Below are positions 14,951 through 64,000 of a stretch of DNA of 64,000 bases, piece after piece (positions within the stretch are counted from its first letter, which is position 1; each line of letters opens with the position of its first letter). The notes under the pieces are model-generated. The model ran no database searches, was not told where the DNA came from, and saw nothing but the letters and a program-made list of their open reading frames with translations. The stretch comes from Opitutales bacterium (lineage in GTDB: Bacteria > Verrucomicrobiota > Verrucomicrobiia > Opitutales > UBA2987). Both the position numbers and the translations under genes were made by a program. The stretch is from contig CBDDEL010000015.1 of NCBI GenBank assembly GCA_965226885.1, forward strand, positions 640,001 to 704,000, read 5' to 3'.

Positions 14951-16912
14951 ATGGTCGCGGCAATGGACCTGACTGCTGCCTATTGGCGATCCCTTGCTCT
15001 TTTTCTTGCCGGCATGTCCCTGGCCGCACCGTTCCAGGTTCGGGCGGCGGTGGATTTGCTTCCGGTGGAGGCGTTTTTCAGCGGCAATCAATACACCGAG
15101 GTTACCATTTCGCCGGATGGCGAATGCCTGGCTTTTCTCAGCCTGGTGAACGGCAGCCGGAATCTTTTCACTTACTCCATTGAGAAAAAACAATACAAAA
15201 GCCTGACCGAAGGCGGGAGGGACGCAGTTTTCGATTATGCCTGGGCGGGCAACGAATACCTGGTTTACCAGATAACGCAGGAAGATTATTTGGGTCTGGG
15301 CTTGGCCGCCGTTCGCCGGGACGGCAAAAAACGCAATCGGAAAGTTCTTTTGGAGCCAGCCCGGATGGTCCACAGCATGCCCGCCTACCCCAAACACATC
15401 CTGGTGGTCCTTTATCCCTACGAGGAACAATTTCCAGACCTTCACAGGGTGGGTATCACTTCCAGATACCGCACCACCTTTTTTGAGAATCCGGGCGATG
15501 TCGATTACTGGCTGCTCGATCCCGAGGGCCAGGTGAGGCTGGTGAAAGTCTTTAATCGGGACGGCAGCATTGACGTCTATCGCTACCGGGCCACGGTCAA
15601 AGAGCCCTGGCAGGAAATCCGGCTGCCCGCGGAAACTTACCCGCTGGCCCTTGATTACGACAGCAGTTTGCTGTATGTCGCCACCGGCAAAGACCGGCCC
15701 TTCACGGCCGTTTACAAATACGACCCGCAGTCGCAGGAATTCGCGGGCCTGGTCTGGAAAGATTCCTCATATGATGTCGTCCCCGGCTACGACCTGAACG
15801 GAGCGAGAGATTTCAAGGGCCTCATATTTTCCGATCAATTCCGCACCCTGGCGGGCATCGCCTATGAGCGCAATGGTCCTCAAATTCAATGGTTCCTGCC
15901 TTTTTATGAAGATTTGCAGGAAATGATCGATCAATCCTTGCCCAATACCCAAAATGTTTTCCTGGGCCGCGACAAAAGTGAAGAACACTTTCTCATCTTT
16001 GCCTACAATGACCGCGATCCTGGAAATTATTACCTGCTGGATTACCCTACCCGGCACCTGCAGTGGCTCTTCTCTAAAAATCCAGCCATAAATCCCGAAC
16101 AAATGGCGACCATGAAACCGGTCCAGATGCCATCGCGGGATGGGCGCATCCTGCACGGCTATTTGACCCTTCCGAAGGGCAAAAGACAGAACCTTCCCCT
16201 GGTCCTGAAACCGCATGACGGACCCTTTATGAGGGATAAATGGGGTTTCGACCCGGAAGTGCAATTCCTGGCCAATCGAGGCTATGCCGTTTTGCAGGTG
16301 AACTACCGGGGGTCCACCGGATACGGAAAAAATTTTTTCATGGCCGCTTTCGGAGAGATCGGCAAAAAAATGCAAAATGACATCACCGACGCGGTCCGCT
16401 GGGCAGTCTCGGAAAAAATCGCGGATCCGCAACGCATCGCCATTTACGGTGAAGGCTTCGGGGCCTACCTGGCCATGTCGGGACTGTTATTCACCCCCGA
16501 GCTATTCCAATGCGCCGTGGCCGTGGGCGGCATCTACGATTGGGAGACTTTTCTGGATAGCGACAAAACGTCTGTCATGGAACGCAATATGCCATTAAGC
16601 AGAATCTGGTTCGGGGAAACCGGGGACGAAGATTATGATAATAATACTAACAACAATAACAATGAACTATTAAAAACCGTCTCACCGGCTCACCATGCCG
16701 CACGGACCAAAAATCCCGTATTACTAATTCCAAAAGCCAACAACGGCCTCCCCATCGACCCCCAAACCCGCCTCATGGCGGAAGCCCTCCAAAAAGAGGG
16801 TAAACCGCACGAAATATTCGGCCAAAGCACAAACCCGGTCCACCCCCTGGAAAAATCCACCCCCCTCGACCACTACCACCGCATCGAAACCTTCTTGTCC
16901 GAAAATCTTTAA
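14951..16912 (+). CDS. S9 prolyl-oligopeptidase-family protein with degenerate catalytic residues
   Basis: Signal peptide, ISPDG propeller repeat, LANRGYAVLQVNYRGSTGYG; nucleophile loop is YGEGFGAY rather than GxSxG; start codon uncertain. Confidence 0.85.
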   Translation: MVAAMDLTAAYWRSLALFLAGMSLAAPFQVRAAVDLLPVEAFFSGNQYTEVTISPDGECLAFLSLVNGSRNLFTYSIEKKQYKSLTEGGRDAVFDYAWAGNEYLVYQITQEDYLGLGLAAVRRDGKKRNRKVLLEPARMVHSMPAYPKHILVVLYPYEEQFPDLHRVGITSRYRTTFFENPGDVDYWLLDPEGQVRLVKVFNRDGSIDVYRYRATVKEPWQEIRLPAETYPLALDYDSSLLYVATGKDRPFTAVYKYDPQSQEFAGLVWKDSSYDVVPGYDLNGARDFKGLIFSDQFRTLAGIAYERNGPQIQWFLPFYEDLQEMIDQSLPNTQNVFLGRDKSEEHFLIFAYNDRDPGNYYLLDYPTRHLQWLFSKNPAINPEQMATMKPVQMPSRDGRILHGYLTLPKGKRQNLPLVLKPHDGPFMRDKWGFDPEVQFLANRGYAVLQVNYRGSTGYGKNFFMAAFGEIGKKMQNDITDAVRWAVSEKIADPQRIAIYGEGFGAYLAMSGLLFTPELFQCAVAVGGIYDWETFLDSDKTSVMERNMPLSRIWFGETGDEDYDNNTNNNNNELLKTVSPAHHAARTKNPVLLIPKANNGLPIDPQTRLMAEALQKEGKPHEIFGQSTNPVHPLEKSTPLDHYHRIETFLSENL

Positions 16913-19800: not shown

Positions 19801-19816
19801 CCATCTCCCCATCTCC
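19801..19816. repeat. 8-bp tandem duplication CCATCTCC x2, present only in IS1380 copy 1
   Basis: Copies 2 and 3 have a single CCATCTCC at the same position. Confidence 0.95.
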
Positions 19817-19865
19817 AATAGCAATAACGAGCCAAACTTTACCCTTCATGAAATATCCGGGTTAG

Positions 19866-43708: not shown

Positions 43709-45319
43709 TCAAAGCTCTCGTTTCATGACAGTGGTATTTTTTGCCTCGGGAAGTTTTTTCGTATAATCGAGAGTGTAATGCAAGCCCCGGCTCTCCTTGC
43801 GCTGGAGGGCGCATTGAACAATCAAATCGGCTACCTCTATCATATTTCTCAGTTCCAGCAAACGCGGTTCCACCTTGAAATTCCAGTAATAGTCGTAAAT
43901 TTCGTTTTTCAGGTTCTGAATACGAGCCCGGGCCCGTTCCAGGCGCTTGGTCGTGCGCACGATGCCCACATAATCCCACATCGTGCGTCGCAGTTCATCC
44001 CAGTTATGGGAAAGGACCACCCGCTCATCGCTGTCCTCCGCATCGCCGTCCACCCATTCTGGCGGAACCACTGATTCCAGCTCGTGTTTTTTCAAATAAT
44101 CGACCACCGCGAGGGATCCCCGGTGAGCCATCACGACTGCTTCCAGCAGCGAATTACTGGCCAGCCGATTGGCCCCGTGCAACCCCGTGCAGGCCACCTC
44201 TCCACAGGCATAAAGACCGGGCAGGCTGGTTTCGGAGGACATATTGGTGCTCACCCCGCCGCACAGATAATGGGCCGCTGGCACCACCGGAATCAAATCC
44301 GTCGCCATATTGATTCCGTGCCGGGTGCAGACCTCGAAAATATTCGGAAAACGATCCTGCAGCACCTCTTCCGGATGCCCCGTGATATCCAGCCAGAGAT
44401 GCCGCGCGCCGGACTGCTTCATCTCGCTGTCGATGGCCCGCGCCACGATGTCTCGCGGTGCCAGGTCGGCCCGCGCGTGGTGCTGTTTCATAAACGGCTG
44501 GCGGTCCGCATTGCGCAAAATTGCACCCTCCCCCCGGACCGCTTCGCTGATCAGGAATCGATCGCCGCTGATGCTGTAAAGAGAAGTCGGGTGAAACTGG
44601 ACAAACTCCATATTGGCCACTTTCACTCCGGCCCGGTAGGCCATGGCAATGCCGTCGCCGGTGGCGATATCGGGATTGGTCGTAAATTGGTAAACCTGCC
44701 CCAATCCCCCCGTTGTCAGCATCACAACCGGTGCCCGGAAAACCTCCACCCGCCCCTTGAGGACATCTAGGGCATAGAGGCCAATCACGCCATCGCCCTC
44801 ATCGTGGACGGCAAAACCGCTCTTCGTCAGCCTATTTTGCGTAATCAAGTCGATGGCGAAAAAATGCTCCAGCACGGTAATAAAATTATTGCGCGCAGTC
44901 GCCCTCAAAAGGGCTGATTCGATGGCCTTACCGGTGATATCCTTGACATGGAGGACTCGCCGGTGGGAGTGCCCGCCTTCCCGTCCCAGGGAAGGGGAGC
45001 CATCCTCCAATTGGGAAAAATGCACCCCGATATCGATCAACTCCTTCACCCGGGCCGGCCCCTCCCTGATGATCTCCTCAACCGAAACCGCATCGCACAA
45101 ACCATCCCCGGACTCCAAAGTATCCTCCAGATGGCTCTGAAAATCATCATTCTGAGCGGTCACGCAAGCAATGCCGCCCTGGGCGTAATTGGTATTGGAA
45201 GCGGCCCGATTCTTCTTCGTCAAAATAGCCACACTGCGCCCCGCCGAAGCCACCTGCAAAGCAAAGCTCAACCCGGCAATCCCGCTACCCACCACAATAA
45301 CATCAAAATTTCTGCTCAT
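43709..45319 (-). CDS. nadB: L-aspartate oxidase
   Basis: GSGIAG, NTNYAQGGIA, EGGHSHRR, QFHPT, GLHGANRLASNSLLE, ESRGLHY. Confidence 0.96.
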   Translation of the reverse strand: MSRNFDVIVVGSGIAGLSFALQVASAGRSVAILTKKNRAASNTNYAQGGIACVTAQNDDFQSHLEDTLESGDGLCDAVSVEEIIREGPARVKELIDIGVHFSQLEDGSPSLGREGGHSHRRVLHVKDITGKAIESALLRATARNNFITVLEHFFAIDLITQNRLTKSGFAVHDEGDGVIGLYALDVLKGRVEVFRAPVVMLTTGGLGQVYQFTTNPDIATGDGIAMAYRAGVKVANMEFVQFHPTSLYSISGDRFLISEAVRGEGAILRNADRQPFMKQHHARADLAPRDIVARAIDSEMKQSGARHLWLDITGHPEEVLQDRFPNIFEVCTRHGINMATDLIPVVPAAHYLCGGVSTNMSSETSLPGLYACGEVACTGLHGANRLASNSLLEAVVMAHRGSLAVVDYLKKHELESVVPPEWVDGDAEDSDERVVLSHNWDELRRTMWDYVGIVRTTKRLERARARIQNLKNEIYDYYWNFKVEPRLLELRNMIEVADLIVQCALQRKESRGLHYTLDYTKKLPEAKNTTVMKREL

Positions 45320-45836
45320 CGTTCAAACAATCCATACATTAAAAATTCAGCCATCAACCATCAATCCATCCAAACACTTATTCAATACCAAACCCAAACA
45401 CCCAGCATCCACCATCCAATATCCGTGTAATCCGTTGTAAAAAATATTCTATCCAGCATCATGCATCCAGTATCCAATATCTGTGTTAATAAATCCATAT
45501 TCGGCAGTGACTATACCACAAAATCCAAAAAAACACAATAGATACGTTGGCTCCGTTTGATGCGTTTGAATAAACCTTCAAAAAATCAGAAAATCCCAAA
45601 AAAATGCGCCAAAATGTCCCACCAAAAGCAACTCCAACTCACAATTTCCCGCACAAAACACCCAAAATCCAACATCTCCGTGCCTCAGTACCCCTGAGAG
45701 GAATTATTTCAACATCAACCAACAAATCAGCAGCCAGTAACCTCCCCAACTTCACCCTCGCTTAAACAAATCTTGCTATGACACAAACTTTTGTTAAATT
45801 AGGGCTCTAAATTAAACCCAAACAATTCACCGAACT

Positions 45837-46561
45837 ATGGAATCACATACTAATTTAAGTGTCATTTTTGATAATTCAAACGAACCAGTAAATTCAACTG
45901 ATTTAGCAGACTTCTTATATTTGTCAGGGCGATCTATGGAGTAGCGACAGAACTTTTTCCAGATCAAAAGCTTCAAGACGCACTCGATAAGGATTTTTTG
46001 CTTAAAGATCAATTAATTGCACATTTTAACGAACATTTAAGCGGGCTCGACAACGCATCTAAATCAGAATATTTCTCGTTAGATATTAAATATTATGATT
46101 TGTCGATAGAATCAATAAATAAATAAAGTCCATTTGAAATTATTTTTGTTGGTCTCGCTCTACCACTGGTAATTGCTGTTATTTTATCGGGAGGAGAAAT
46201 CAAAATTCCATTTACAAAAGTTAAATTAAATCCAATCGGTTATGGGATAAAAATGTTGCGTGAGGCATTACAAGTACAACCAGAATTCAAGACTGGCTTC
46301 ACAATTAAGTCGAAAAAAAAACAATTAAATCCGGAGGAATATAAAGAACTTTTTTCTCATGATCCTTCAGAGTATTACAAGGGTGGATTTCAAAAGTTTT
46401 TTGCACGACTTCAACTGAAAACCGATTCTAAATCTAATATTATCTCATTGAATGATAAAGATATTGAATTCATTTCAAAGCACGGGAAGGACCCAAAAAT
46501 AGGAGGTTGGCAGAAATCCCTTCGAAGGATTTTTGATAGACACTTTGATTTTGAAGAATAA
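45837..46561 (+). pseudogene. AT-rich hypothetical gene (one TM plus a small C-terminal domain) with a frameshift near 45922 and an in-frame TAA at 46124-46126
   Basis: Manual translation: MESHTNLSVIFD...DFLYL / RAIYGVATEL...SINK*SPFEIIFVGLALPLVIAVIL... continues in frame into ORF 46253..46561. Confidence 0.55.
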
Positions 46562-46572
46562 GTAAACTGGAT

Positions 46573-46848
46573 ATGCCAAAGGTTCGATTAAACAAAGATG
46601 AAATTGCTTTGGTTTTGGGAATCAAGCTCAATTCCATTAAAGATCAAGATTTTCGAGATCTCATATACAGGATGTTGCTACTCCTTGACGAAGACACAGG
46701 TGAATTCGAAATCCCCGGGGAGATGTGGGACGAAATTCGACAATTCGCATTTTCATCGGGAAACCCCGATTGGGAAAGGTTTCTTGTATCTGTATTCGGT
46801 CGCACATTGGGAAAATATTTGGATCTCGGGTTTTCAGATAATTTATGA
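46573..46848 (+). CDS. Small hypothetical protein resembling the C-terminal domain of the upstream gene
   Basis: Shared pattern LN..E...F...L...D......I...I......W...L..(I/V)F.R. Confidence 0.65.
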   Translation: MPKVRLNKDEIALVLGIKLNSIKDQDFRDLIYRMLLLLDEDTGEFEIPGEMWDEIRQFAFSSGNPDWERFLVSVFGRTLGKYLDLGFSDNL

Positions 46849-46891
46849 TTTTTTTCTTGTACTACGATAATAATTCATTATTTTCGAGGGT

Positions 46892-47767
46892 ATGACTAAA
46901 AAAATATCTAAAAATTCATATAATTTTTTCAATGTTGATTGCCTTGTTGGAATGAAAGATGTTCAACAAAATTCAGTTGATATCGTAGTAACTTCACCAC
47001 CATACAATATTGGTATTGGTTACAGAAGTTACAATGATAGCCTGAGTGCCGAGGAATATCTGGAATGGTCCGATAGCTGGGCAAAGGAAATACATCGATT
47101 ATTGAAAGATGATGGTTCCTTTTTTCTTAATATTGGTGCTCCTCCCTCGAATCCAATGTTACCACATGAAATTGCTATCCGATTTAGTAAATACTTTCAC
47201 CTTCAAAATACATTTCATTGGATAAAATCCATTTCCATTGAAACGAAAGATGGAGAGTTAATTTCTACTGGACATTTTAAACCAATTAATTCCCAAAGGT
47301 ATGTCAGCGATTGCCACGAGTACGTTTTTCATTTTACAAAATCGGGTAATACGCCTCTCCAAAGATTAAATATCGGCGTACCTTACAAAGACAAAAGCAA
47401 TATAAATCGTTGGAAACACACAGATGGACATGATAAACGTTGCCGTGGAAATACATGGTTTATTCCTTATAAGACGATTTATAATAAAAAGCTTCAAAGG
47501 CCACATCCTGCAACTTTTCCTACTCAGTTAGCAAAGTATTGCATATTGCTACATGGAATTGATCGAAAAACTGTTGTTATGGATCCATTCTTAGGATTGG
47601 GAAGTTCGGCAATTGCCGCATTTGAATGCAATGTTAGGTTCTTTTACGGATATGACATTGAGTTAGAATATCTTGAATATGCAGTAGCTGATCTAAAAGA
47701 TAAATGTAATTCCTCATTAATGTTAGAATTAGCAACTCCGAAGGAATTTATTCCTAAAGCTGTCTAA
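46892..47767 (+). CDS. Beta-class N4-cytosine DNA methyltransferase, orphan; resembles M.MjaV/M.RsaI-type enzymes
   Basis: TSPPY motif IV precedes HPATFP and DPFLGLGS motif I; GHFKPINS, IGVPY.DKSNI and RGNTWFIPY segments recalled from the M.MjaV family. Confidence 0.9.
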   Translation: MTKKISKNSYNFFNVDCLVGMKDVQQNSVDIVVTSPPYNIGIGYRSYNDSLSAEEYLEWSDSWAKEIHRLLKDDGSFFLNIGAPPSNPMLPHEIAIRFSKYFHLQNTFHWIKSISIETKDGELISTGHFKPINSQRYVSDCHEYVFHFTKSGNTPLQRLNIGVPYKDKSNINRWKHTDGHDKRCRGNTWFIPYKTIYNKKLQRPHPATFPTQLAKYCILLHGIDRKTVVMDPFLGLGSSAIAAFECNVRFFYGYDIELEYLEYAVADLKDKCNSSLMLELATPKEFIPKAV

Positions 47768-47907
47768 GTCTTTTACTTTTTTGCCGGATTAAAATCGATT
47801 TGTGCTTGCCCTGGCGGGTGTCGGTGTCTGTGCCTTTTTAGGACGATACTTGAATTTTTTGATAAATAAGCTTGAATAACTGTGCTTGAAAGGAGTGTTT
47901 CTTCCCC

Positions 47908-49128
47908 GTGATCCGAATTAATGATAACTACCTGAAGTTGAAAGCTTCCTATTTGTTTGCCGATATTGCCCGGCGGGTGCAGGCCCATCAGGAGGCGCAT
48001 CCGCAGACGGAAATCATAAAACTGGGCATCGGCGATGTGACCGAGCCGCTCCCGCTGGCTTGCCGGGAGGCTTTCCACAAGGCCGTTGACGATTTGGGCC
48101 GCCGGGAATCTTTCCACGGCTACGGACCGGAACAGGGCTACTCGTTTTTGCGAGAAGCCATTGCCGAAAATGATTACCAAAGCCGCGGGACCGACATTTC
48201 GGCGGACGAAATTTTTATCAGCGACGGAGCGAAATGCGACTCCGGCAACATCCAGGAAATTTTTGCCCAGGACACCACCATAGCCGTAACGGATCCGGTC
48301 TATCCGGTCTATGTAGATACCAACGTCATGGCGGGCCGCACCGGTTCCTGCGTCAAGGGCCATTATGAAAACCTCGTTTACCTAGAATCTACCTCGGAAA
48401 ACGACTACATGCCCAGCCTACCCGAGCGGCCGGTGGACCTCATTTACCTCTGTTTTCCCAACAACCCGACCGGTACCACCGCCACGGCGCAGCAATTGCA
48501 GCAATGGGTCGATTACGCGCGCGAAAACAACGCTGTCATCCTCTTCGATGCCGCCTATGAATCCTTTATTCGGGACGACTCCCTGCCCCACTCCATTTAC
48601 GAGATCGAAGGGGCGCGGCAAACGGCAATCGAGTTCCGCAGTTTCTCCAAAAACGCCGGATTCACCGGTACCCGATGCGCCTTCACTGTGGTCCCAAAAG
48701 AATTGACGGCCAAAGATTCCCAAGGAATTGAGCAATCCCTGCACTCCATGTGGTCGCGCCGCCAATCGACCAAAACCAACGGCGTCTCCTACCCCGTGCA
48801 AAAAGCGGCCGCGGCCGCTTATACGAAAGAGGGTCGCCGGGAAATAACGCAATTGGTCGATTATTATCTGGGCAACGCGCGAATGATTCTGGAAAAGATG
48901 ACCTCGCGCGGTTTCACTTGCGCGGGGGGAGAAAATTCACCCTATATCTGGATCAACACGGGCGGAGATTCGTGGGATTTTTTCGATTTGCTGCTCAACA
49001 AAGCGGGCGTTGTCTGCACGCCGGGCGTCGGCTTCGGCAATTGCGGGCAAGGACACATCCGGCTGAGCGCCTTTAACAAAAAGGAAAGCATTGCCGAGGC
49101 ATTGGAGCGCATCTCCTCGGTTTTATAA
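47908..49128 (+). CDS. dapL: LL-diaminopimelate aminotransferase
   Basis: [45 protein letters not shown]. Confidence 0.95.
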
Positions 49129-49562: not shown

Positions 49563-50612
49563 TCAAATCCGCTCGATGATGCGTTCAGTAAGGCTTTCCG
49601 TCGTTTCGCTGCCACCGATATCCGGTGTGCCCAATTCCGCCGCCAGGGTTTGCTCGACAGCGCGTTTAACAGTCTCCGCGGCAGCCTCCTGCCCCAGCCA
49701 TTCGAGCATCATGGCCCCGCTTAAGATGGCCCCCACGGGATTGGCGATACCCTTGCCGGCAATATCGGGAGCCGAACCGTGAACCGGCTCGAAAAGCGAT
49801 GGAAAGCGCCGCTCGGGGTCGAGATTGGCCGATGGGTTGATGCCCAGACTACCCGTGATCGCCCCGGTCAGGTCCGTTAATATATCGCCGAACAGATTGC
49901 TCGCCACCACCACATCGAATTCGGACGGACGGAGTACAAATTTCATGGTTGAGGCATCCACATGCAGTTTTTCAACCTCCACCTCGGAGAATTGAGGGCT
50001 AATTTCCTCCAGAATCTCATCCCACAGCACATACCCGTAAGCCAGGGCGTTGGACTTGGTAACTAGAGTCAATTTCTTGCCCCGCGTCAAAGCCAGATCG
50101 AACGAAAATCGCAGGATGCGCTCAATCCCCCTACGGGTGTGCAATGCCGTCTGCAATGCGGTTTCCTCCGGTTTTCCACGGTGGAACCGGCCGCCAAGAT
50201 TGACGTATTCGCCTTCCGAGTTTTCCCGAACCACCACCATATCAATCGGTTTATCGTCACGCAACGGGCTGGAAATACCGGCAAAGGTGCGCGCCGGCCG
50301 CACACAGGCGTAGAGATCGAATTGCTGCCGGATTTGAATTATCGGAACCAAGGTAACATGATCCGGCAGTCGCTCCGGCCAGCCGATTGCACCCAGAAAA
50401 ATAGCGTCAAAAGGCCGCAGGCGCTCGATAAAATCCTCGGGAACAATGTATCCATGAGTTTCATAATATTTCACACTCCAGTCGAACCGCTCATATTCCA
50501 GGGCAAAGCCGCCCATTTTACCCTGCGCGGCATCCAGCACCCGGATGGCAGCCTCTGAAACATCGACCCCGATCCCGTCCCCGGGATAATGAGCAATCCT
50601 AAAAGTATCCAT
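49563..50612 (-). CDS. Tartrate/isopropylmalate dehydrogenase-family protein
   Basis: PGDGIG, VRENSEGEY, NLFGDILTD, FEPVHGSAPDIAGKG.ANP. Confidence 0.9.
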   Translation of the reverse strand: MDTFRIAHYPGDGIGVDVSEAAIRVLDAAQGKMGGFALEYERFDWSVKYYETHGYIVPEDFIERLRPFDAIFLGAIGWPERLPDHVTLVPIIQIRQQFDLYACVRPARTFAGISSPLRDDKPIDMVVVRENSEGEYVNLGGRFHRGKPEETALQTALHTRRGIERILRFSFDLALTRGKKLTLVTKSNALAYGYVLWDEILEEISPQFSEVEVEKLHVDASTMKFVLRPSEFDVVVASNLFGDILTDLTGAITGSLGINPSANLDPERRFPSLFEPVHGSAPDIAGKGIANPVGAILSGAMMLEWLGQEAAAETVKRAVEQTLAAELGTPDIGGSETTESLTERIIERI

Positions 50613-51533
50613 AACCAACCATTGAATAAAAAAATCCGCCCTCGGCAATACAAGATTCGAAGACTGTGATTCGACCTCTTAACTCCTTTCGCAACACCCG
50701 TGAAGAAATAAGGGTTGTTCGACGTTTGTGGATTCGGTTGCGTGTAAATATATTCTTTGCCGTTTGGCGATAGTCATCAATTTTCAATTTCGGATTGCCT
50801 GGTCTTCGGACTCGCGGCTATGGTGGCCGCCTCATCCTGCCAGGAGGTTCACTCATATTGAATATTTCTATGATGCCCACTTTTTCCAGTGCACATCACA
50901 CGATGCAGGATGCATGATTCTATATGTTTGATGGGTAGGTAGAGGTACAGTCAGGACATCGTTTACGGAAATAGATCAAGACATGGTACTTGCACCGGTC
51001 CTAAAAAAGTTGTTCAAACCTCATTGCAAAACCTATCAGGTCTGTTATCAAATTATTTTTCCATAGTAATTATCTGATATCAAAATAACCGATGAAACCG
51101 TTACCCAAAGACCTACAAACGTCAAAAAAATGCCTTGATGAATTTTTCGAAGTAACCGAAAGAGTTTTGGGTTATTTGCCTAACCCGGATATTTCGTAAA
51201 AAAAGTATCGTTGATATGCTTAACTGCTGATATACAGCAGGATAGATCAATAATTAAAGCAATATCAGCGATGACAAAAGGTAAACAATTAAAGCTACAG
51301 TTGACAAGGGTAAAAGGCCGCCGTGTGCGGGTTGATTTCAAGGGCGGAGAGGTTACTTCGGATGCCGGACTGCTTTTGATCCGGGAAGTGGATCGGCAGT
51401 TGGGCTTGACCGAACGAGCGGCCCGACAGTTAGTGGACAAACGGCAGAAGGGCAAAGTACGCCATGAGGTATTGGGGATGCTGCGGCAGCGCGTTTACGG
51501 GCTGGTGGCGGGCTATGAGGATTTGAACGACTT

Positions 51534-52818
51534 TGATGTGACCGCCGAAAACACTACCATTGCCAGTGAGAGTCTTTCTGGAGAAATTACCGGAAAGACC
51601 TATGAAGCAAAAAAGATACACCCCTGAACAAATCATAACGATACTGCGCGAAGTAGACGCAGGCAAAGGCATTCAGGATGTCTGTCGGTCCCACAATATC
51701 AGTCCTCAAAGCTACCATCGTTGGCGTAAAAAGTATGGCCGCATGGAGCTGCGTGGCGCCAAGCGGCTGAAGGAGCTGGAGCGCGAAAACACGCAGCTTA
51801 AGAAGATAGTAGCCGAGCAGATGCTGGAGAACCGTGTGCTCAAGGAGGTGAACGCAAAAAAATGGTAGGCCCGAAGCAGAAAAAGGAAGCGGTGAAGCAT
51901 GTATTGGCCCAAGGGTCGTGCTCGCTGCGTCGGGCCTGTCAGTATTTTGGGTTGCACCGCTCAACCTACCTGTATGAACCCAAGAAAGCTACTGAGTATA
52001 GGCATAAACTGGTGGCACGCATCATTGCCTTTTCGAAGAAGCATCCGCGCTATGGCTATCGTCGGATCCGCGCTTTGTTGGCCCATGAAGGTTGGCCCGT
52101 GAGTCGCAAATTCGTCCAAAAAGTGCGTCGTTTCGAAGGACTGGGTGTGCGCCCGTCTGGCAAGCGCCGTCGCCGGCAGGGCCAATCCACGGCTACCCCG
52201 ACCCGAGCAGTGCAGCCCAACCATGTGTGGAGTTGGGACTTCGTGGCGGATCGCACCGACCGGGGCGGTCCGCTCAGGCTCTTGACACTGATCGATGAAC
52301 ATACCCGTCAATGCCTGGCCATTAAGGTTGCGCGCTCACTGAAAAGTGCCGATGTGGTAGAGGTATTGAACGATGCCATAAGAGAGAACGGCAAACCTCA
52401 GTGCATCCGCTCGGACAACGGATCGGAGTTTATAGCCCACCAAGTCAAAGAAGAACTGCAGCGACAGGAAATTGCCATCGCATACATTGATCCAGGAAGC
52501 CCTTGGCAGAATGGACATATAGAATCCTTTCATAATCGTTTGCGCGATGAATGCCTTAACCAGGAACTGTTCCTGAGCGTGACCGAAGCGCGTGTGGTGG
52601 TCGAACAATGGCGACACAAATACAACGCGAAACACCCCCACAGCCGATTAGGCTTTCTCTCCCCAAATACATTTGCCAGACTCTGGCGAACAATCAACAA
52701 AGCAGCGGCTGGCTCCATTCGGCCTACGGCCTCATTGCGCCACCCGCTGCAAAACCTACAATACCAAACCTACGGAAATACTCTCACTTAAAGTGGTAGC
52801 AAAGATGGGGTCCGATCA
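51534..52818 (+). mobile_element. IS3-family element (IS407-group-like, 1285 bp) nested in IS1380
   Basis: Ends TGATGTGACC / GGTCCGATCA; TSD ACTT. Confidence 0.92.
51602..52791 (+). CDS. IS3 transposase OrfA/OrfB with a -1 frameshift at AAAAAAATGG near 51856-51865
   Basis: OrfA HTH (RYTPEQII.ILRE); OrfB WSWDF, SDNGSEF, PWQNGHIESF. Confidence 0.9.
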
Positions 52819-54348
52819 ACTTTGATACCCTGCGCCACGATCCATTGTTGCAAACGGTAACGGGGCGCATTGAAACGTTGGCCAGCGCGCCGACTTTGTG
52901 TCGTTTTGAAAACGGGCAGGATCGGCGGGCGGCCTTTGCGGTAAACGAGCTGTTGGTCGAACAGTTCATGGGCTCTTTTGCCGAGGAACCCGAAGAGATC
53001 ATCCTGGACTTTGACGCCACCGACAATCCGGTGCACGGGCTCCAGGAGGGACGTTTTTTCCACGGTTATTATGATCATTACTGTTTTCTGCCGCTATATG
53101 TTTTTTGCGGTGATCAGCTGCTGGTGGCCTACCTGCGGCCGAGCAAGATCGATGCCAGCAAGCATGCCGGGGCCATCCTCAAATTGCTGGTTAAACGGAT
53201 TCGCCAAAGCTGGCCCCGTAAGCGGATTATTTGGCGCGCCGACAGTGGATTTTGTCGAGACCGGATACTCTCTTGGTGCGACCGCAACGAAGTTAGTTAC
53301 ATCGTGGGGATGGCTCGCAATGCACGCTTGCAGCAAGACGCCCAGCAGTTGCAAAAGCAGGCCAAAGAATGGTTCGAACTAAGGGGTAAAAAACAACGGT
53401 TATTCCAGGACTTCGTCTATGCTGCCGATTCGTGGCGATGGCTGCGGTTGGTCATCCATAAAGCCGAACACACCGCACAGGGGTCCAACCCGCGCTTCGT
53501 GGTGACGAACCTGCCGGGCGATCCCCAGGAGCTTTACGACAAGGTATACTGTGGCCGCGGTGAAATGGAGAACCGAATCAAGGAACAGATGCAATTGTTC
53601 AGCGAGCGCACCAGCGCCCATCAATGGTGGGCCAATCAGTGGCGATTGCTCTTGTCGGCGCTGGCCTACACCTTGATGGAAGCCATGCGCCGGTTAGCCT
53701 TAAAAGGGACGAAGTGGGCGCGGGCCCAATGCCACACCCTGCGGCTCAAATTAATCAAGATCGGAGCGGTCATCGTGCGCAACACCCGAACGATTCACTT
53801 TCACCTAAGTGAGAGTTATCCTTGGGCCAGTCTTTTCAACCATGCGGCCCGCCGATTGGTGCCAACCTAAAGGGTGCATTGGTGCTGCCCCCGGCACTAC
53901 CGAACCAATGGGGGAAAGGGGGCAGTGTCTCTACACCCTGAAAAACACCTAAAAATCAAGACGATCTGCTCAAAATACAAAGAAATCCATCTCCAATAGC
54001 AATAACGAGCCAAACTTTACCCTTCATGAAATATCCGGGCTAATATTGTTTCCCATGAAGAAAGAGCCAAAGATTATATAATCTTATCTTCTGAAATGGC
54101 TGGGACAGTGAAGTACGCCCGTCCAATAAATAATAATTTATTCATCTTTGACCGCTTGGTTTTCAACAAACAATCCAAAAGATTTCTCTCTATCATCAAT
54201 AAAATCAAGCGGAAAAAAACGATTGGAAAAGAAGAACACAAAACCATTAATTCAGTTGTTTATACGATCCAACAGTCTCTGGGCGTCGGTATGGATATTC
54301 TATGCAATCCAAACAGTTCAAGAAAACATGTTGGCAATAGATTTGAAG

Positions 54349-57089: not shown

Positions 57090-57415
57090 TCCTCCTTTCT
57101 AGGATAAGCGTACCGGTTTTAAAGCGCCCTCTTTACCGTACCGGTTTTTCCCCGGCGTTTACACTCAATGACGTTCAGAGAAAGGAAACAAAACAAATCA
57201 GTTACACCTTTGTTTCTGGTCTGTTTATGGTATACACAAAATTTTTAACCGAACTTGAAGGCGTCTATTTCATTGATACACCACCTCTCACTAAAGAGGC
57301 ACCATACAATCAACATATTTTTTCTTTTTCTAAGTTTATAGCCGAGGACATCTGACGTGTACTGGATTTGTTGGACACGGGATTCTCTTATATTCATTGT
57401 TTATTGATTAGTGTG

Positions 57416-58333
57416 TCAGGCGGCTTGTTTTGGTAAAGGGTTTTGCTTTCTCGTTGCCCCCCATGGGGGGCAAATATTTTCCTCGAATTGGACTGGGCTT
57501 TGGTAACTCAGAGAGGAATGTTTGCGATATCGGTTGTAGAAGATTTCCACGTATTCGAAGACAGTTGATCGCAGTTCGCGCTCGTCGGCAAAGTGGCGGC
57601 CTCGAATCGTGCTGGTCTTGAAGCGGCCGTAGAACGATTCCATGGCCGCGTTGTCGTAGCAGTTGCCTTGGGCGCTCATGCTCGGCTTCATGCCTAGTTC
57701 AGAGACCAGCCTCTGATAGTCGTCGCTGGCGTAGGGGCTGCCCCGATCGCTGTGATGAATAATCCCGGTGCGCAGTGTGCCGCGGGTCATGGCCGCGGCT
57801 TTGAGGGCCTTGCCAACCAGCTTCGCGTCGTTGTGGTTGGAAACGCTCCAGCCCAGCAGGCGTCGGCTGAACAGGTCCATCACCGTGGCCAAGTACATCC
57901 AACCGGCCAGGGTCCGTAGGTAGGTCGTGTCCGCCACCCAGACCTCGTCGATATGGGTCGGCTGGCCATGCTTTCTAAGCACATTGGGGCTGTAACCATA
58001 GGGATGGTTACTGTTGGTTTTTAATGGCTTAAAGCGTTTACTCTGGGTGCTTTTGATTCCCATTTCACGCATCAGACGCAGAGCCCGGTCACGGCCGCAA
58101 TCGATGCCCTCATCATCCTTCAGATGGCGGTGCATTGGCCGATGCCCATAGCGGCCCTTGGCCTCTTTGTGTACCTTCAGGATCGCCCCCTTGATTCCCT
58201 CGTCCTCGATCCGCCGGGCCGAGGGCGCTCGGTGCCTCCAGCAGTAATAGCCACTGCGACAAATCCCCATCGCCGAGCATATCTCCTCGATCTTGAAGCG
58301 CCCCTCGTTGTCTTTGACAAACTGGTACTTCAT
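57416..58333 (-). CDS. IS3 element A OrfB (DDE integrase domain)
   Basis: WVADTTY, HSDRGS, CYDNAAMESF. Confidence 0.9.
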   Translation of the reverse strand: MKYQFVKDNEGRFKIEEICSAMGICRSGYYCWRHRAPSARRIEDEGIKGAILKVHKEAKGRYGHRPMHRHLKDDEGIDCGRDRALRLMREMGIKSTQSKRFKPLKTNSNHPYGYSPNVLRKHGQPTHIDEVWVADTTYLRTLAGWMYLATVMDLFSRRLLGWSVSNHNDAKLVGKALKAAAMTRGTLRTGIIHHSDRGSPYASDDYQRLVSELGMKPSMSAQGNCYDNAAMESFYGRFKTSTIRGRHFADERELRSTVFEYVEIFYNRYRKHSSLSYQSPVQFEENICPPWGATRKQNPLPKQAA

Positions 58334-58580
58334 TGTTCGTCCTTGGCAAAGTAGCCCACCGTTTTTTTTAGTATCTGGTTGATCCGCTCCGAGCGGCGCA
58401 GCTCTTTGCGAAGACGATCTATCTCGGCCGCCATCTCCTTCGGACTGCTCTGTCGCTTTGAGGTGGCTTCGCCCTGCTGATCGTCCAGATAGAGCCTCTT
58501 CCACCTATACAATTGGTTGGTGTTGACCCCAAGTTTGGTCGATACCTCGGTGGCGCTCAGACCATCGAGTATCATCAGTT

Positions 58581-59913
58581 TGAAATGGACGGGGAAAACT
58601 GGACAGTGGAATAAGGTGGTCTTGAACCACTAAATCCGCTAACCTATGAATGTTATTAAATCACGAAAGAGAAGACAATACAGTGCTGAGTTTAAAGCCC
58701 GAGTGGCCCTGGAAGCCATCAGGGGCGCTCATACCATCAACGAGATCGCCGGTCGTTTTGAGGTGCATCCCAACCAGGTGACCCAATGGAAGAAGCAGCT
58801 TTTGCAGGGAGCAACGGAGCTGTTTTCGCGCCAGCGGCAGACTCTCAGCAAGGACAACGAGACGGAAAAAGATCACCTTTACCAGGAGATTGGAAAGCTG
58901 AAAGTAGAATGCGATTGGCTAAAAAAAAAGTCTGAACAATTCGGTTGGTGAGAGGCGCAAGATGGTGCAACCACTTCAAGGAAAAATCAGTATCGGCAGG
59001 CAATGTCAGTTGCTGGGGCTGGCCCGCGGCAGCTATTACTATCGGGCCCGTGCCCAGTGCGAGCAGAACGTTCTCTACATGCATCGCATGGATGAGCTCT
59101 ACACCCAATATCCGTTTTTTGGTTCTCGCCGGATGACCCAGTGGCTGCGTCGAGAGGGCCATGCAGTGGGACGAGGCCGCATCCAGCGGCTCATGCGCCA
59201 AATGGGCCTGGAGGCTATTTATCCGCGTCGAAACTTGAGCCAGGGGCACCGGCAGCACCGCATTTTCCCTTATCTGCTGCGGGGTTTGGCGGTCGAGCGG
59301 CCCGACCAGGTATGGTGCAGCGACATCACTTACCTGCGGCTGAGCCGAGGATTCCTTTTCTTGACCGTGGTGTTGGACTGGTTCAGCCGCTACGTGTTGA
59401 GCTGGCAGCTTTCCAACACCCTGGAGAGCCGCTTCTGTGTGCTCGCCCTGGAGGAAGCTCTGAGGCGGGCCCAACCTCAAATCTTCAACACCGATCAAGG
59501 CAGCCAGTTTACCGGCAGCGAGTTCACCTCGGTGCTGGGGCAAGCCGGGGTGCGCATCAGCATGGACGGGCGTGGCCGCTACCTGGACAACATATTTGTT
59601 GAACGCTTTTGGAGAACCCTCAAGTATGAAGACATTTACCTGCGCGAATACGCCACGGCAAAGGAAGCCAGCGAAGGGATAGCCCGCTACCTGGACTTCT
59701 ACAACCACCTGCGCCCCCACCAAGCCCTGGGCTACCGGACCCCGGCCGAAGTCCATGCAATCGGAGCAAAACCAACCTCCCCGCCAATACAGCTTGCGGG
59801 CACCTGCGTGCCCGTCTTTGGCTAAGGACAAAATATATTTTTAAAAAATAATATGAACACGATTTCCACCTTAATCCCACGTCAAAATTGTCCAAACAAC
59901 CCCGTCCACTTCA
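58581..59913 (+). mobile_element. IS3-family element B (1333 bp) nested in orfA of element A
   Basis: IRs TGAAATGGACGGGG / CCCCGTCCACTTCA; TSD GTT; orfA 58646-58951, slippery A-run plus G near 58920-58930, orfB to 59825 (WCSDITY, NTDQGSQF, DNIFVER). Confidence 0.93.
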
Positions 59914-60025
59914 GTTGAACTGCCTCATTTTTGAACTCTATACTGCGTCTTCTTCCCATGCTTCGATTCTCCATTTAGGAGAATCTCGTGTCCACTTTTT
60001 CCAGTGCACATCAATCTGGAAATTA

Positions 60026-61090
60026 TTATCCCCTTAACTTTCTCCGTCGTTCAAGGACATCTGCCTCCTCCCTATTGTCGGCAATTCTTCCAATGTGAGC
60101 CTTGTCCTGAAGTCTTCTTTTTATCGATTTACAATATTCTATATTTGTTTCTGTACCATACCAGTTACGACCAAACGCCTCAGCCACAGCATAAGTTGTC
60201 CCTGAACCACCAAAAGGATCAACCACCAAGCCATCAATATTTGAGGAGGCAAGTATACACTTTTTCACTAACTCTATAGGTTTTTGAGTCGGGTGCTTTT
60301 CCCTTTCCCATGAATTATTGGTTAATGTTGGTATCTCAAAAACATCTTTCGGCTTTGCGCCTTTGTGATGAGGAGTCCAAACATATTCTTTTCCATTCCC
60401 ATACTGAGAACTCTTTGCTTGTGGATGGTGTGGATATTTTAGAGTGTGGGCATTGTATGGAACTCTTACTTCATCAACATTAAAAATTATTTTGTTACTA
60501 TTCCTAAAATGCAACAAACTTTCGTGCGACCGCCCCCAGTCATTAGCAAAGTTAGCCTTATTTCGGTAATACCAAACCAACCATTTACACCCCTTAAAGA
60601 GACTGCTAGCCGCCCATTTAAGATCAGCTAATATTTCCGAAAAACCACAAATATATAAACTTCCATTAGGTTCCAGCACTCTTTGCGCCTCTTTTATCCA
60701 TTCAATGCTCCAATGTACATATTCTTGTTGGGATTCAAAAGTATCCCATTCAGCTTTTTTGATATTGTATGGAGGATCAGCAAAAATAAGTTGAACGGAA
60801 GACGTTTTTACTGTTTTAAAAAAGGTTATAACATCTGCATTATACAATCTACCAAGGGTTGTAGTGAATAATGGGACTATCTGGTGTTGTAGAGAATTTG
60901 CATAATCAGTTAAGTATTTTTGTTCATGCTCTTTCAACACTAACTCAATTTGATCATCACTATAAACACGGTAATTATTAAAGGGGTTTCTCTGTGATGG
61001 GAATTTTCCTGTTTTATCCCACCTTCTAAGTGTTTCAGAGCTCACCCCGATTTTTTTTGCAGCCTGGCTAATTTTAAGGTAATTTTCCAT
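60026..61090 (-). CDS. Beta-class amino-DNA methyltransferase with an N-terminal MerR-type HTH
   Basis: LKISQAAKKIGVSSETLRRWD...NNYRVY HTH; ADPPY, HPTQKP, DPFGGSGT; frame intact. Confidence 0.93.
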   Translation of the reverse strand: MENYLKISQAAKKIGVSSETLRRWDKTGKFPSQRNPFNNYRVYSDDQIELVLKEHEQKYLTDYANSLQHQIVPLFTTTLGRLYNADVITFFKTVKTSSVQLIFADPPYNIKKAEWDTFESQQEYVHWSIEWIKEAQRVLEPNGSLYICGFSEILADLKWAASSLFKGCKWLVWYYRNKANFANDWGRSHESLLHFRNSNKIIFNVDEVRVPYNAHTLKYPHHPQAKSSQYGNGKEYVWTPHHKGAKPKDVFEIPTLTNNSWEREKHPTQKPIELVKKCILASSNIDGLVVDPFGGSGTTYAVAEAFGRNWYGTETNIEYCKSIKRRLQDKAHIGRIADNREEADVLERRRKLRG

Positions 61091-61217
61091 AGTTTTTCCC
61101 TAATGTTTAAATGTTCATGATGTGCACTGGAAAAAGTGGACACGAGATTCTCCTAAATGGAGAATCGAAGCATGGGAAGAAGACGCAGTATAGAGTTCAA
61201 AAATGAGGCAGTTCAAC

Positions 61218-62550
61218 TGAAGTGGACGGGGTTGTTTGGACAATTTTGACGTGGGATTAAGGTGGAAATCGTGTTCATATTATTTTTTAAAAATATATTT
61301 TGTCCTTAGCCAAAGACGGGCACGCAGGTGCCCGCAAGCTGTATTGGCGGGGAGGTTGGTTTTGCTCCGATTGCATGGACTTCGGCCGGGGTCCGGTAGC
61401 CCAGGGCTTGGTGGGGGCGCAGGTGGTTGTAGAAGTCCAGGTAGCGGGCTATCCCTTCGCTGGCTTCCTTTGCCGTGGCGTATTCGCGCAGGTAAATGTC
61501 TTCATACTTGAGGGTTCTCCAAAAGCGTTCAACAAATATGTTGTCCAGGTAGCGGCCACGCCCGTCCATGCTGATGCGCACCCCGGCTTGCCCCAGCACC
61601 GAGGTGAACTCGCTGCCGGTAAACTGGCTGCCTTGATCGGTGTTGAAGATTTGAGGTTGGGCCCGCCTCAGAGCTTCCTCCAGGGCGAGCACACAGAAGC
61701 GGCTCTCCAGGGTGTTGGAAAGCTGCCAGCTCAACACGTAGCGGCTGAACCAGTCCAACACCACGGTCAAGAAAAGGAATCCTCGGCTCAGCCGCAGGTA
61801 AGTGATGTCGCTGCACCATACCTGGTCGGGCCGCTCGACCGCCAAACCCCGCAGCAGATAAGGGAAAATGCGGTGCTGCCGGTGCCCCTGGCTCAAGTTT
61901 CGACGCGGATAAATAGCCTCCAGGCCCATTTGGCGCATGAGCCGCTGGATGCGGCCTCGTCCCACTGCATGGCCCTCTCGACGCAGCCACTGGGTCATCC
62001 GGCGAGAACCAAAAAACGGATATTGGGTGTAGAGCTCATCCATGCGATGCATGTAGAGAACGTTCTGCTCGCACTGGGCACGGGCCCGATAGTAATAGCT
62101 GCCGCGGGCCAGCCCCAGCAACTGACATTGCCTGCCGATACTGATTTTTCCTTGAAGTGGTTGCACCATCTTGCGCCTCTCACCAACCGAATTGTTCAGA
62201 CTTTTTTTTTAGCCAATCGCATTCTACTTTCAGCTTTCCAATCTCCTGGTAAAGGTGATCTTTTTCCGTCTCGTTGTCCTTGCTGAGAGTCTGCCGCTGG
62301 CGCGAAAACAGCTCCGTTGCTCCCTGCAAAAGCTGCTTCTTCCATTGGGTCACCTGGTTGGGATGCACCTCAAAACGACCGGCGATCTCGTTGATGGTAT
62401 GAGCGCCCCTGATGGCTTCCAGGGCCACTCGGGCTTTAAACTCAGCACTGTATTGTCTTCTCTTTCGTGATTTAATAACATTCATAGGTTAGCGGATTTA
62501 GTGGTTCAAGACCACCTTATTCCACTGTCCAGTTTTCCCCGTCCATTTCA
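61218..62550 (-). mobile_element. IS3-family element B, second copy
   Basis: Identical ORFs 62180..62485 and 61306..62169; same IRs. Confidence 0.93.
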
Positions 62551-62787
62551 ACTCGATGGTCTGAGCGCCACCGAGGTATCGACCAAACTTGGGGTCAACA
62601 CCAACCAATTGTATAGGTGGAAGAGGCTCTATCTGGACGATCAGCAGGGCGAAGCCACCTCAAAGCGACAGAGCAGTCCGAAGGAGATGGCGGCCGAGAT
62701 AGATCGTCTTCGCAAAGAGCTGCGCCGCTCGGAGCGGATCAACCAGATACTAAAAAAAACGGTGGGCTACTTTGCCAAGGACGAACA

Positions 62788-63705
62788 ATGAAGTACCAGT
62801 TTGTCAAAGACAGCGAGGGGCGCTTCAAGATCGAGGAAATATGCTCGGCGATGGGGATTTGTCGCAGTGGCTATTACTGCTGGAGGCACCGAGCGCCCTC
62901 GGCCCGGCGGATCGAGGACGAGGGAATCAAGGGGGCGATCCTGAAGGTACACAAAGAGGCCAAGGGCCGCTATGGGCATCGGCCAATGCACCGCCATCTG
63001 AAGGATGATGAGGGCATCGATTGCGGCCGTGACCGGGCTCTGCGTCTGATGCGTGAAATGGGAATCAAAAGCACCCAGAGTAAACGCTTTAAGCCATTAA
63101 AAACCAACAGTAACCATCCCTATGGTTACAGCCCCAATGTGCTTAGAAAGCATGGCCAGCCGACCCATATCGACGAGGTCTGGGTGGCGGACACGACCTA
63201 CCTACGGACCCTGGCCGGTTGGATGTACTTGGCCACGGTGATGGACCTGTTCAGCCGACGCCTGCTGGGCTGGAGCGTTTCCAACCACAACGACGCGAAG
63301 CTGGTTGGCAAGGCCCTCAAAGCCGCGGCCATGACCCGCGGCACACTGCGCACCGGGATTATTCATCACAGCGATCGGGGCAGCCCCTACGCCAGCGACG
63401 ACTATCAGAGGCTGGTCTCTGAACTAGGCATGAAGCCGAGCATGAGCGCCCAAGGCAACTGCTACGACAACGCGGCCATGGAATCGTTCTACGGCCGCTT
63501 CAAGACCAGCACGATTCGAGGCCGCCACTTTGCCGACGAGCGCGAACTGCGATCAACTTTCTTCGAATACGTGGAAATCTTCTACAACCGATATCGCAAA
63601 CATTCCTCTCTGAGTTACCAAAGCCCAGTCCAATTCGAGGAAAATATTTGCCCCCCATGGGGGGCAACGAGAAAACAAAACCCTTTACCAAAACAAGCCG
63701 CCTGA
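62788..63705 (+). CDS. IS3 element A OrfB, second copy
   Basis: Matches the left copy except N>S and V>F. Confidence 0.9.
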   Translation: MKYQFVKDSEGRFKIEEICSAMGICRSGYYCWRHRAPSARRIEDEGIKGAILKVHKEAKGRYGHRPMHRHLKDDEGIDCGRDRALRLMREMGIKSTQSKRFKPLKTNSNHPYGYSPNVLRKHGQPTHIDEVWVADTTYLRTLAGWMYLATVMDLFSRRLLGWSVSNHNDAKLVGKALKAAAMTRGTLRTGIIHHSDRGSPYASDDYQRLVSELGMKPSMSAQGNCYDNAAMESFYGRFKTSTIRGRHFADERELRSTFFEYVEIFYNRYRKHSSLSYQSPVQFEENICPPWGATRKQNPLPKQAA

Positions 63706-64000
63706 CACACTAATCAATAAACAATGAATATAAGAGAATCCCGTGTCCAACAAATCCAGTACACGTCATTCACAAAACATTAGACAACATTGAACACAAA
63801 CCTTATACAAATAATTATTAAACTTGGTCAATATCTTTATCGCAATATTGTTCCATATTTGCAGAAAACACTGTATCTAACTGATGATAAAGATATTACG
63901 AATAATTATATACTTGTATAAAAGAAAGACTGGATTTTTTAAGATTTTTCCGTAAAAATTATTCGGAATACTATTGTTTTCTTTTCCTTACTTTTTAATC

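Follow-up and report, generated by a model that had tools for sequence, protein, structure and literature searches.

Why do the two strands of a few hundred base pairs of bacterial DNA become so unequal in composition, and does such an inequality beside a small genomic island tell how the island moves? This question is raised by a 64,000-nt stretch of an Opitutales genome (contig C15:640001-704000, hereafter the window). In it, the minus-strand gene nadB is followed, 5' to 3', by 0.5 kb of G-poor non-coding DNA, a 2-kb low-GC island on the plus strand, a dapL-type gene (plus strand), a gene of the isocitrate/isopropylmalate dehydrogenase (Iso_dh) family (minus strand) and copies of insertion sequences (IS). 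The island holds three or four small open reading frames (ORFs) on the plus strand, the methyltransferase gene coming last. A first-pass annotation had taken the skew as orientation-independent and as a possible signature of an undescribed mechanism of cargo exchange. We arrive at another reading, to which we give a probability of about 60%: the tract is the promoter-proximal zone of nadB together with the relic of a neighbouring gene's 3' end, the skew comes from transcription that starts in a dispersed promoter cassette, and the island has left no scar in it.

The genome (G000; 5.48 Mb in 17 contigs, 52% GC) was compared with four congeners, G001 to G004, the five genomes of the genus being 81-96% complete. 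Skew in genes is given as the G+T excess at third codon positions of the coding strand, usually over codons 1-90.

Anatomy of the G-depleted tract

The four base counts given by the first-pass annotation for the plus strand were all exact on recounting: 26 C and 8 G at 45061-45120, a single G in the 60 nt of 45361-45420, 30 G+T of 40 with one A at 47801-47840, and 83 C, 77 A, 45 G and 56 T at 50440-50700. When GC skew was scanned over the whole genome in 273,834 windows of 200 nt (standard deviation 0.129), it was below -0.5 in 49 windows and above +0.5 in 37, and the stretch 45201-45820 was the longest of the 39 merged extreme tracts. The 200 nt upstream of nadB rank first in skew among 1,060 upstream regions, and codons 1-90 of nadB, with a G+T excess of 0.53, rank fifth among 2,370 genes. 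Along the coding strand of nadB the excess is 0.50 in the windows nearest the start and declines to about 0.1 deeper in the gene, with a T-over-A component of 0.42. The protein remains 95, 93 and 87% identical to those of three congeners. The earlier view that nadB keeps its motifs and that the change is largely synonymous is upheld by the full FAD_binding_2 match and by the position of the skew at third codon positions.

Contigs from the public runs of two studies span 44937-45517 and 45546-48069 with 0 and 1 differences, and end only at a repeat, the cassette described below, where depth spikes. An assembly artefact is excluded because both the tract and the island recur in these contigs.

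The record length of the tract is the result of a juxtaposition. On one side lies the 5' zone of nadB with its predicted leader of about 184 nt, which holds 69 A, 54 C, 13 G and 48 T on the plus strand (GC skew -0.61), so that its sense strand is C-poor (13 C in 184 nt). The leader contains short tandem duplications found by TRF, namely TCAACCA in 3.3 copies and ATCCGTTGTA in 2.1 copies. On the other side lies the decayed relic of a plus-strand gene. This relic can be aligned with the final ~140 nt, including the stop codon, of a gene for a PIN toxin, of which G003 and G004 have intact versions (Pfam PIN on their ORFs). The intact 3' end is likewise C/A-rich, with a GC skew of -0.44 in G004 and -0.47 in G003. 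Given that both parts are C/A-rich on the plus strand, they make up one record-length tract. A search of 45200-48000 against Rfam, with E up to 1, gave no match.

The flip in skew described after the island was not confirmed. It amounts to only +0.14 to +0.17 in 200-nt windows, and 466 runs across the genome are made up of 40-mers that have 30 or more G+T and no more than one A. The G/T-rich stretch from 47813 on is the native upstream DNA of dapL, common to G004, to which BLAST homology starts again at 47813. A terminator scan placed none at the G/T-rich 40-mer. The milder C/A-rich stretch said to precede a restriction-modification (R-M) locus was right as to composition, but the supposed R-M locus near 51 kb is IS DNA with DDE and rve transposases. 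The part 50440-50648 is the 5' end of another minus-strand gene, of the Iso_dh family, with a G+T excess of 0.40 over codons 1-90 (98.9th percentile).

A dispersed, predicted promoter cassette upstream of nadB

When the intergenic DNA was compared by BLAST with its own genome, a dispersed element of 115 nt (45513-45627) was found, which gives 24 hits if its own is counted. Once oriented along the adjacent genes and aligned, the copies give a consensus that consists of a near-invariant block of ~36 nt, directly followed by TTGACg, a T-rich spacer of 17 nt and TGgTATAgT. The pattern TTGnnn-N17-TAnnnT stands at the expected place in 20 of the 24 copies, and the cassette reads as a predicted sigma-70-type promoter with an extended -10 element. 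In the nadB copy, on the minus strand, the -10 box TATAGT occupies 45515-45510 with TGG just before it, the -35 box TTGTGT occupies 45538-45533 with a spacer of 17 nt, and the upstream block is matched at 45543-45561. An alternative reading of the conserved block as a promoter of the extracytoplasmic function (ECF) type was dropped because in the alignment the block is closely followed by a sigma-70 -35/-10 pair.

Of the 24 copies, 21 sit 13-484 nt upstream of a gene start and point at the gene. The 18 genes behind cassettes differ in length and N-terminus and are not paralogues (Pfam for nadB only). To judge from these N-termini, only nadB having been checked against Pfam, they look like assorted housekeeping genes. 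No terminal inverted repeats or target-site duplications were noticed in the cassette alignment, in which no dedicated search for them was made.

Copies in the congeners were counted with a 19-nt pattern of the conserved block, allowing at most one mismatch, instead of a 96-nt BLAST query, which in G001 and G002 gave only 2 hits. The pattern occurs 24 times in G000, 27 in G004, 14 in G003, 4 in G002 and 0 in G001, and its reversed control gave 0 hits. In an order-wide sample of 61 genomes, which includes G000 and G001, the block was found in only one of the 59 further genomes, at a single locus with two adjacent matches.

Skew follows gene direction and the cassette

The annotation had held that the skew is independent of orientation and that transcription direction cannot explain it. 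In genes of at least 360 codons the G+T excess falls from about +0.08 near the start to -0.13 in the last 30 codons. Site 2, the nadB flank, is the 5' end of a minus-strand gene, while site 1, the other place where the skew had been noticed, is the 3' end of a plus-strand gene for an S9 peptidase, and both fit this genome-wide gradient from start to stop. The last 80 codons of the peptidase gene score -0.60, the 0.7th percentile among 2,360 genes. In 282 divergent gene pairs, the plus-strand skews of the two 5' ends that face each other correlate with r=-0.07 (G+T excess) and r=-0.14 (GC3 skew, p=0.018). The absence of a positive correlation is contrary to a process shared by the strand, which predicts one.

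It is clear that the genes behind cassettes stand apart from the rest. Over codons 1-90 the mean G+T excess is 0.325 for the 18 cassette genes and 0.023 for all others (p=1.5e-9), and over the remainder of the gene 0.135 against -0.024 (p=1.5e-7). Measured on the plus strand of the element in successive 300-nt bins from the cassette, the skew in G000 is -0.335, -0.298, -0.204, -0.160 and -0.159 and then about 0, being gone by ~1.8 kb, and there is none on the opposite side of the cassette. The gradient is found again in G004 (0.39, 0.28, 0.25, 0.20 and 0.18, for the 20 of 27 cassettes with a downstream ORF) and in G003 (0.43, 0.32, 0.14, 0.11 and 0.15, for 9 of 10). A one-sided skew that decays over ~1.5 kb is seen at about 20 loci.

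The same genes were then compared among congeners with and without the cassette, using the G+T excess of the first codons and dropping rows truncated at the 5' end. Ten gene families were informative: the excess is higher with the cassette in 7, equal in 1, lower in 1 and ambiguous in 1. For nadB the values are 0.53, 0.56 and 0.44 with the cassette and 0.16 without, for the metH-like gene 0.31 against 0.13, 0.22 and 0.04, for the valS-like gene 0.18-0.42 against 0.09, and for the rodA-like gene 0.71 and 0.64 against 0.40 and 0.44. A gene of 332 aa has 0.47, 0.58 and 0.16 with the cassette and 0.20 and 0.20 without, and one of 813 aa has 0.29 and 0.07 with and 0.16 and 0.09 without. For sucA the excess is +0.42 in G002, which has the only sense-oriented cassette, and -0.29, -0.47 and -0.09 in the genomes without. 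In the equal family the value is 0.47 on both sides, and in the ambiguous one there are only 283 nt of upstream DNA to inspect. Across these orthologues the skew appears mostly to track the presence of the cassette. In dapL, a cassette-free control, the clades do not differ in this way.

Beside the skewed nadB orthologues, a frame of 550 aa is open antisense across all of nadB in G004 (L013), and one of 386 aa in G003. These frames are most simply a by-product, because G/T-ending codons remove antisense stops.

Direction of the substitutions and a possible mechanism

On the coding strand of nadB, G001 differs from the three skewed congeners by 47-51 C>T against 16-28 T>C changes and by 31-42 C>G against 9-10 G>C changes. 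For six cassette genes, synonymous third-position changes that arose on the branches to G000 and G004 were polarised, G003 serving as the outgroup. In codons 1-150, coding-strand C>T occurred at 30 of 302 sites and G>A at 17 of 482 (odds ratio 3.0, p=3e-4). The odds ratio falls to 1.8 in codons 150-400 (p=0.008) and to 1.1, which is not significant, beyond codon 400. The strand-asymmetric, deamination-type substitution bias that the annotation had suspected is therefore real in nadB and similar genes, as seen in the C>T excess. The action of a deaminase enzyme was considered and rejected on sequence context, given that C>T peaks at ApC (0.25) and CpT (0.31) and not at TpC (0.13).

From these patterns we infer that the cassette fires, that the nadB transcript starts just downstream of its -10 box, near 45503, and that deamination of single-stranded DNA is the cause of the skew. 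Transcription from the cassette would leave the non-template (coding) strand single-stranded more often, through open complexes or through R-loops on the long untranslated leader. Cytosines of the exposed strand would deaminate, C>T would build up on that strand only, and synonymous sites in the first ~120 codons of nadB would drift to G and T. None of the genus's five genomes, which are 81-96% complete, gave a match to RNase HI (PF00075), while 9 of 14 control genomes did. A long leader prone to R-loops would fit deamination, and so, as circumstantial evidence, would the missing RNase HI match. Matches to the uracil-DNA glycosylase (UDG) family number 2 in G000, 1 in G004 and 3 each in G001, G002 and G003, which in incomplete genomes is suggestive only.

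Several observations weigh against this explanation. The -35 box of the nadB cassette fits the consensus at only 3 of 6 positions, for which reason a promoter consensus scanner did not flag the cassette. The upstream arm of the cassette is also skewed, though it lies upstream of the predicted start. The most expressed set of genes, those for EF-Tu, ribosomal proteins and RpoB/C, is mildly C/A-rich, with values of -0.28 to 0.0 at third positions (one +0.12), and since these genes are not G/T-rich, expression alone does not give the skew. One gene family (C14_605) is reversed, with 0.41 with the cassette and 0.64 in G004, where no cassette was found, and the orthologue counts are not independent because the compared genomes are kin. 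Among the polarised changes, the asymmetries of A>G against T>C (which leans the same way) and of C>G against G>C are not significant, and three-taxon parsimony can mislead when composition is skewed. Finally, the explanation does not account for C/A-rich 3' ends such as that at site 1, nor for the sucA locus.

A broader proposal would be that a mobile cassette restricted to the genus confers a local mutation gradient on any gene that comes to lie behind it, R-loop deamination rewriting the synonymous sites of ~1.5 kb between congeners. We hold this only tentatively and consider it somewhat doubtful. If it were true, the mobility of promoters would change coding sequences in addition to regulation, and the repeated cassettes might also serve as portable homology arms at variable slots. 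Should the reading hold, the three congeners with their ~65 copies would offer a natural repeated experiment, in which one promoter, set before unrelated genes, is followed each time by a C>T bias that is one-sided and decays with distance. This would be unusually direct comparative evidence in a bacterium that the local mutation spectrum of a gene can be set by the promoter in front of it.

Alternative explanations

The alternative that survives best, although we think it improbable, is selection on RNA or codons, by which C-poor leaders and 5' ends and C/A-rich 3' ends would be kept with no part played by mutation. Possible reasons would be a ramp of non-preferred codons, or sites for Rho that are avoided early or favoured at the ends of units. 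The start-to-stop gradient of +0.08 to -0.13 in all genes speaks for such selection, and highly expressed genes use C/A-ending codons, so that G/T-ending ones are non-preferred; nonetheless, the skew reaches 300-500 codons, far past the usual ramp, and has a strong T-over-A component in nadB. Rho is present in all five genomes of the genus, and values for the last 60 codons are lower at the ends of transcription units (-0.12 against -0.074 for operon-internal genes, p=1.4e-10), with extreme 3' ends in 2.9% of unit-terminal and 0.6% of internal genes. However, the C-over-G component is equal in terminal and internal genes (p=0.95), and the model of C/A-rich 3' ends as Rho sites was dropped on this ground. 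Selection on codons or RNA is further opposed by the same skew in non-coding DNA upstream of the predicted start, and by the way in which the skew tracks gain and loss of the cassette among orthologues.

A second alternative, which we judge rather unlikely, is that the skew is the built-in composition of mobile repeats and short tandem duplications, with no biased substitution in place. The intergenic tract is indeed a mosaic of dispersed words and repeats, the leader holds the tandem duplications given above, and large leader indels occur even among genomes with 88-90% identical nadB. The genome has 48 occurrences of the word GGATRYTGGAT and 5 of its reversed control, and among the other extreme tracts several are IS-end repeat copies. 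Composition of this kind cannot account for the skewed synonymous sites in nadB and 17 other unrelated genes, for the decay with distance or for the polarised excess of C>T. GGATRYTGGAT (CATCCA-type on the other strand) is found in the leader (45320-45503) and at ~30 other loci, mostly non-coding and in mixed orientation. Binding of CsrA to the GGA-rich leader was considered and is unlikely: PF02599 was absent from the matches of G000, G002 and G004 and found only in G001 and G003, and the word is oriented toward the gene in 20 copies and away from it in 15.

The model of the first-pass annotation, in which exchange of defence cargo by recombination in the flanks leaves strand-asymmetric mutation behind (by single-stranded DNA, error-prone or reverse-transcribed synthesis), is in our view very unlikely, although one of its premises proved right. 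Throughout the order nadB and dapL keep their adjacency, distant relatives having panC between them, and the interval differs in each congener, as had been supposed. It holds MazE/PIN, an FkbM methyltransferase and a GT8 glycosyltransferase in G001, MazE and PIN, ExbD and more in G003 and G004, and a type II methyltransferase, small ORFs without a family match and the toxin-gene relic in G000. The left junction of the island coincides exactly with the position of the exbD start codon of G003 and G004. With a GC content of 0.34 against 0.52 for the genome, conserved flanks and variable content, the locus has the properties of a genomic island in a hotspot. A pairing as an R-M system is clear only on the methyltransferase side, the neighbouring ORFs of 102 and 91 aa matching nothing in Pfam, PADLOC or PHROGs. 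The remark that no integrase or tRNA is visible was correct: no integrase was found among the island ORFs with these three databases, and no tRNA in the window. No flanking repeats of the island were seen by eye, with no dedicated search run. The island is thus ordinary variable cargo, for which homologous recombination in the conserved flanks would most simply account.

Beside this slot, one contig in run X1 (depth 9.6, ~10% diverged over dapL) joins 45574, in the cassette core, to 47816, upstream of dapL, with ~2 kb of other sequence between, as would be expected if a relative that carries other cargo in this slot were present alongside. At the site-1 island, a low-GC ORF of 291 aa (17272-18147) matches phrog_33593 (function unknown, 4.8e-17) and has no match in Pfam or PADLOC.

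It is the link between the slot and the skew that fails. In G004 the 5' skew of nadB is 0.50-0.57, the same as in G000, with different cargo in the slot, and site 1 has the same 3' skew (-0.67) with no island, only a convergent neighbour gene that in G000 is cut by an IS. Exchange as the source of the skew is therefore contradicted at both sites, and in G003 the start of the site-1 island is present, yet the skew is weaker. The skew is moreover one-sided and follows the direction of the gene. The enrichment that the annotation had proposed to look for was found in part. Of the 39 extreme tracts, 18 have a low-GC island within 1 kb, where 4.8 would be expected, and with an intergenic null 10 of 24 lie near low-GC genes against 12.2% (p=3e-4), but there is some circularity in this enrichment, as extreme ratios arise more readily in low-GC DNA, and copies of IS-end repeats are among the tracts. 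For the outer flanks of 229 low-GC islands, skew did not exceed that of random DNA (p=0.21). Of 23 cassette loci, 7 have a low-GC3 gene within 1 kb, against 11.6% (p=0.013), a modest enrichment. No gene for a reverse transcriptase or deaminase was found among the 14 window ORFs scanned against Pfam, which is not a scan of the full window. There is no sign of a new mechanism of cargo exchange, and strong local skew beside islands need not tell how islands move.

A switch linked to replication (at an origin, a terminus or the breakpoint of an inversion), or an artefact of assembly or sequencing, can practically be disregarded: although the 10-kb bin of the locus, with a GC skew of -0.08, is among the more negative on the contig, skew on the scale of replication is weak in this genome (for the most part within +/-0.05 per 10 kb), so that the tract, only 0.6 kb long, is neither origin nor terminus, the 10-kb profile of the contig has no chromosome-scale change of sign at the locus, and the skew is found both in identical contigs from runs of two studies and in separately assembled congeners.

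Features of the window and other loci

The features to which the argument refers are collected in Table 1.

Table 1. Coordinates, strand and basis of assignment of the features in the window.
Feature	Position	Strand	Basis
Site 1: last ~77 codons of S9 peptidase gene (14927-16912)	16681..16912	+	C/A-rich own coding strand, G+T excess -0.67
nadB (L-aspartate oxidase), intact	43709..45319	-	Pfam FAD_binding_2 7.6e-91 (full match) and Succ_DH_flav_C
Predicted nadB leader (5' untranslated region), ~184 nt	45320..45503	-	Composition; transcript start inferred from -10 box
Dispersed promoter cassette (predicted)	45504..45627	-	BLAST copies, alignment and consensus, pattern counts
Decayed relic of 3' end of PIN toxin gene	45637..45775	+	Alignment with intact gene in G003 and G004
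Low-GC island (34% GC, skew +0.05)	45838..47812	+	Composition, junctions
Frameshifted small ORF	45838-46127	+	Three-frame translation
Small ORFs without family match	46253-46561, 46573-46848	+	Pfam, PADLOC, PHROGs
Type II N6/N4 DNA methyltransferase	46892-47767	+	Pfam N6_N4_Mtase 1e-41; PADLOC MTase_II 5.7e-88; PHROGs phrog_67
Native upstream region of dapL	47813-47907	+	Aligns with G004, G003 and G001; holds most of the G/T-rich 40-mer
dapL-type aminotransferase	47908-49128	+	Pfam Aminotran_1_2
Isocitrate/isopropylmalate dehydrogenase-family gene (5' end 50440..50648)	49563-50648	-	Pfam Iso_dh

Besides the gene at site 1, C/A-rich 3' ends occur elsewhere in the genome: 15 genes have a score of -0.625 or less over their last 80 codons, for example those at C16:852545-853639, C17:780286-781473 and C11:106174-107418. 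The sucA gene lies in an IS-rich region of ~19 kb (C17:551000-570000), in which genes on both strands are skewed to C/A on the plus strand. There sucA, at -0.67, is the genome minimum, and a minus-strand neighbour, at +0.51, is near the maximum. The pattern of this region is common to G000 and G004 and is not found in G001 or G002.

Three copies of an IS of the DDE_Tnp_1_4 type are present in the window, within 18283-21441 and 51180-54048. The first is inserted in the 3' end of the gene that is convergent on the S9 peptidase gene in G004, G001 and G002, of which a relic remains at ~18232-18283, and the third is split by an rve-type IS (51862-52791). Further on, 57353-63768 has perfect inverted-repeat arms (57353-58570 with 62551-63768, and 58573-60013 with 61118-62558) with ORFs of 362 and 328 aa in each, and a low-GC type II methyltransferase gene (60026-61090) lies between them, a layout that resembles a composite transposon carrying a second methyltransferase. 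At the other end of the window, 946-5595 holds four tandem paralogous genes of ~385-400 aa, with 64-80% DNA identity and a spacing of 1121-1224 nt.

Comparison with known systems

Variable hotspots, or islets, between conserved core genes are known to hold defence and toxin-antitoxin cargo. The slot between nadB and dapL resembles them in its flanks, conserved across the order, in content that differs per congener, in its GC content of 34% and in having neither integrase nor tRNA. Nothing unusual sets it apart, the cargo in G000 being a lone methyltransferase, small ORFs and the relic of a toxin gene.

The skew has its nearest parallel in the transcription-associated strand asymmetry of enterobacterial genes, which Francino and Ochman reportedly attributed to deamination of the non-transcribed strand. 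An account of this kind is also reported in PMC2031905, and asymmetries near human transcription starts are reported in PMC2817419 and PMC2927911. The G+T excess of the coding strand, the predominance of C>T over G>A and the maximum near the start of the unit are alike. The differences are that the amplitude here is far larger, with a third-position G+T excess of up to 0.5-0.7, and that the effect is limited to the genes of one promoter family, is absent from the most highly expressed genes and decays within ~1.5 kb.

The head-to-tail short duplications in the nadB leader are similar to the repeat-independent short tandem duplications of the topA R168C mutator of Escherichia coli reported in PMC6954433. 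A link to topoisomerase I or to R-loops would fit an effect close to the promoter, and a connection between the duplications and the skew is speculation.

The cassette itself is close to the putative mobile promoters (PMPs), which are highly similar non-coding sequences upstream of unrelated genes in one genome, in families that are mostly pairs (Nijveen, Matus-Garcia and van Passel 2012, PMC3575422). As in those families, 18 of the 23 other copies match the nadB cassette with an identity of 80% or more over 50 nt or more, there is no Rfam match, no transposase is attached and the genes behind are non-paralogous. It differs in the size of the family (24, 27 and 14 copies in three congeners), in its clear -35/-10 architecture and in the gradient of strand skew in the genes behind it, which is absent from the account in PMC3575422. 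Mobile promoters and transcription-linked strand asymmetry are both of known kinds, and at this locus the two would come together.

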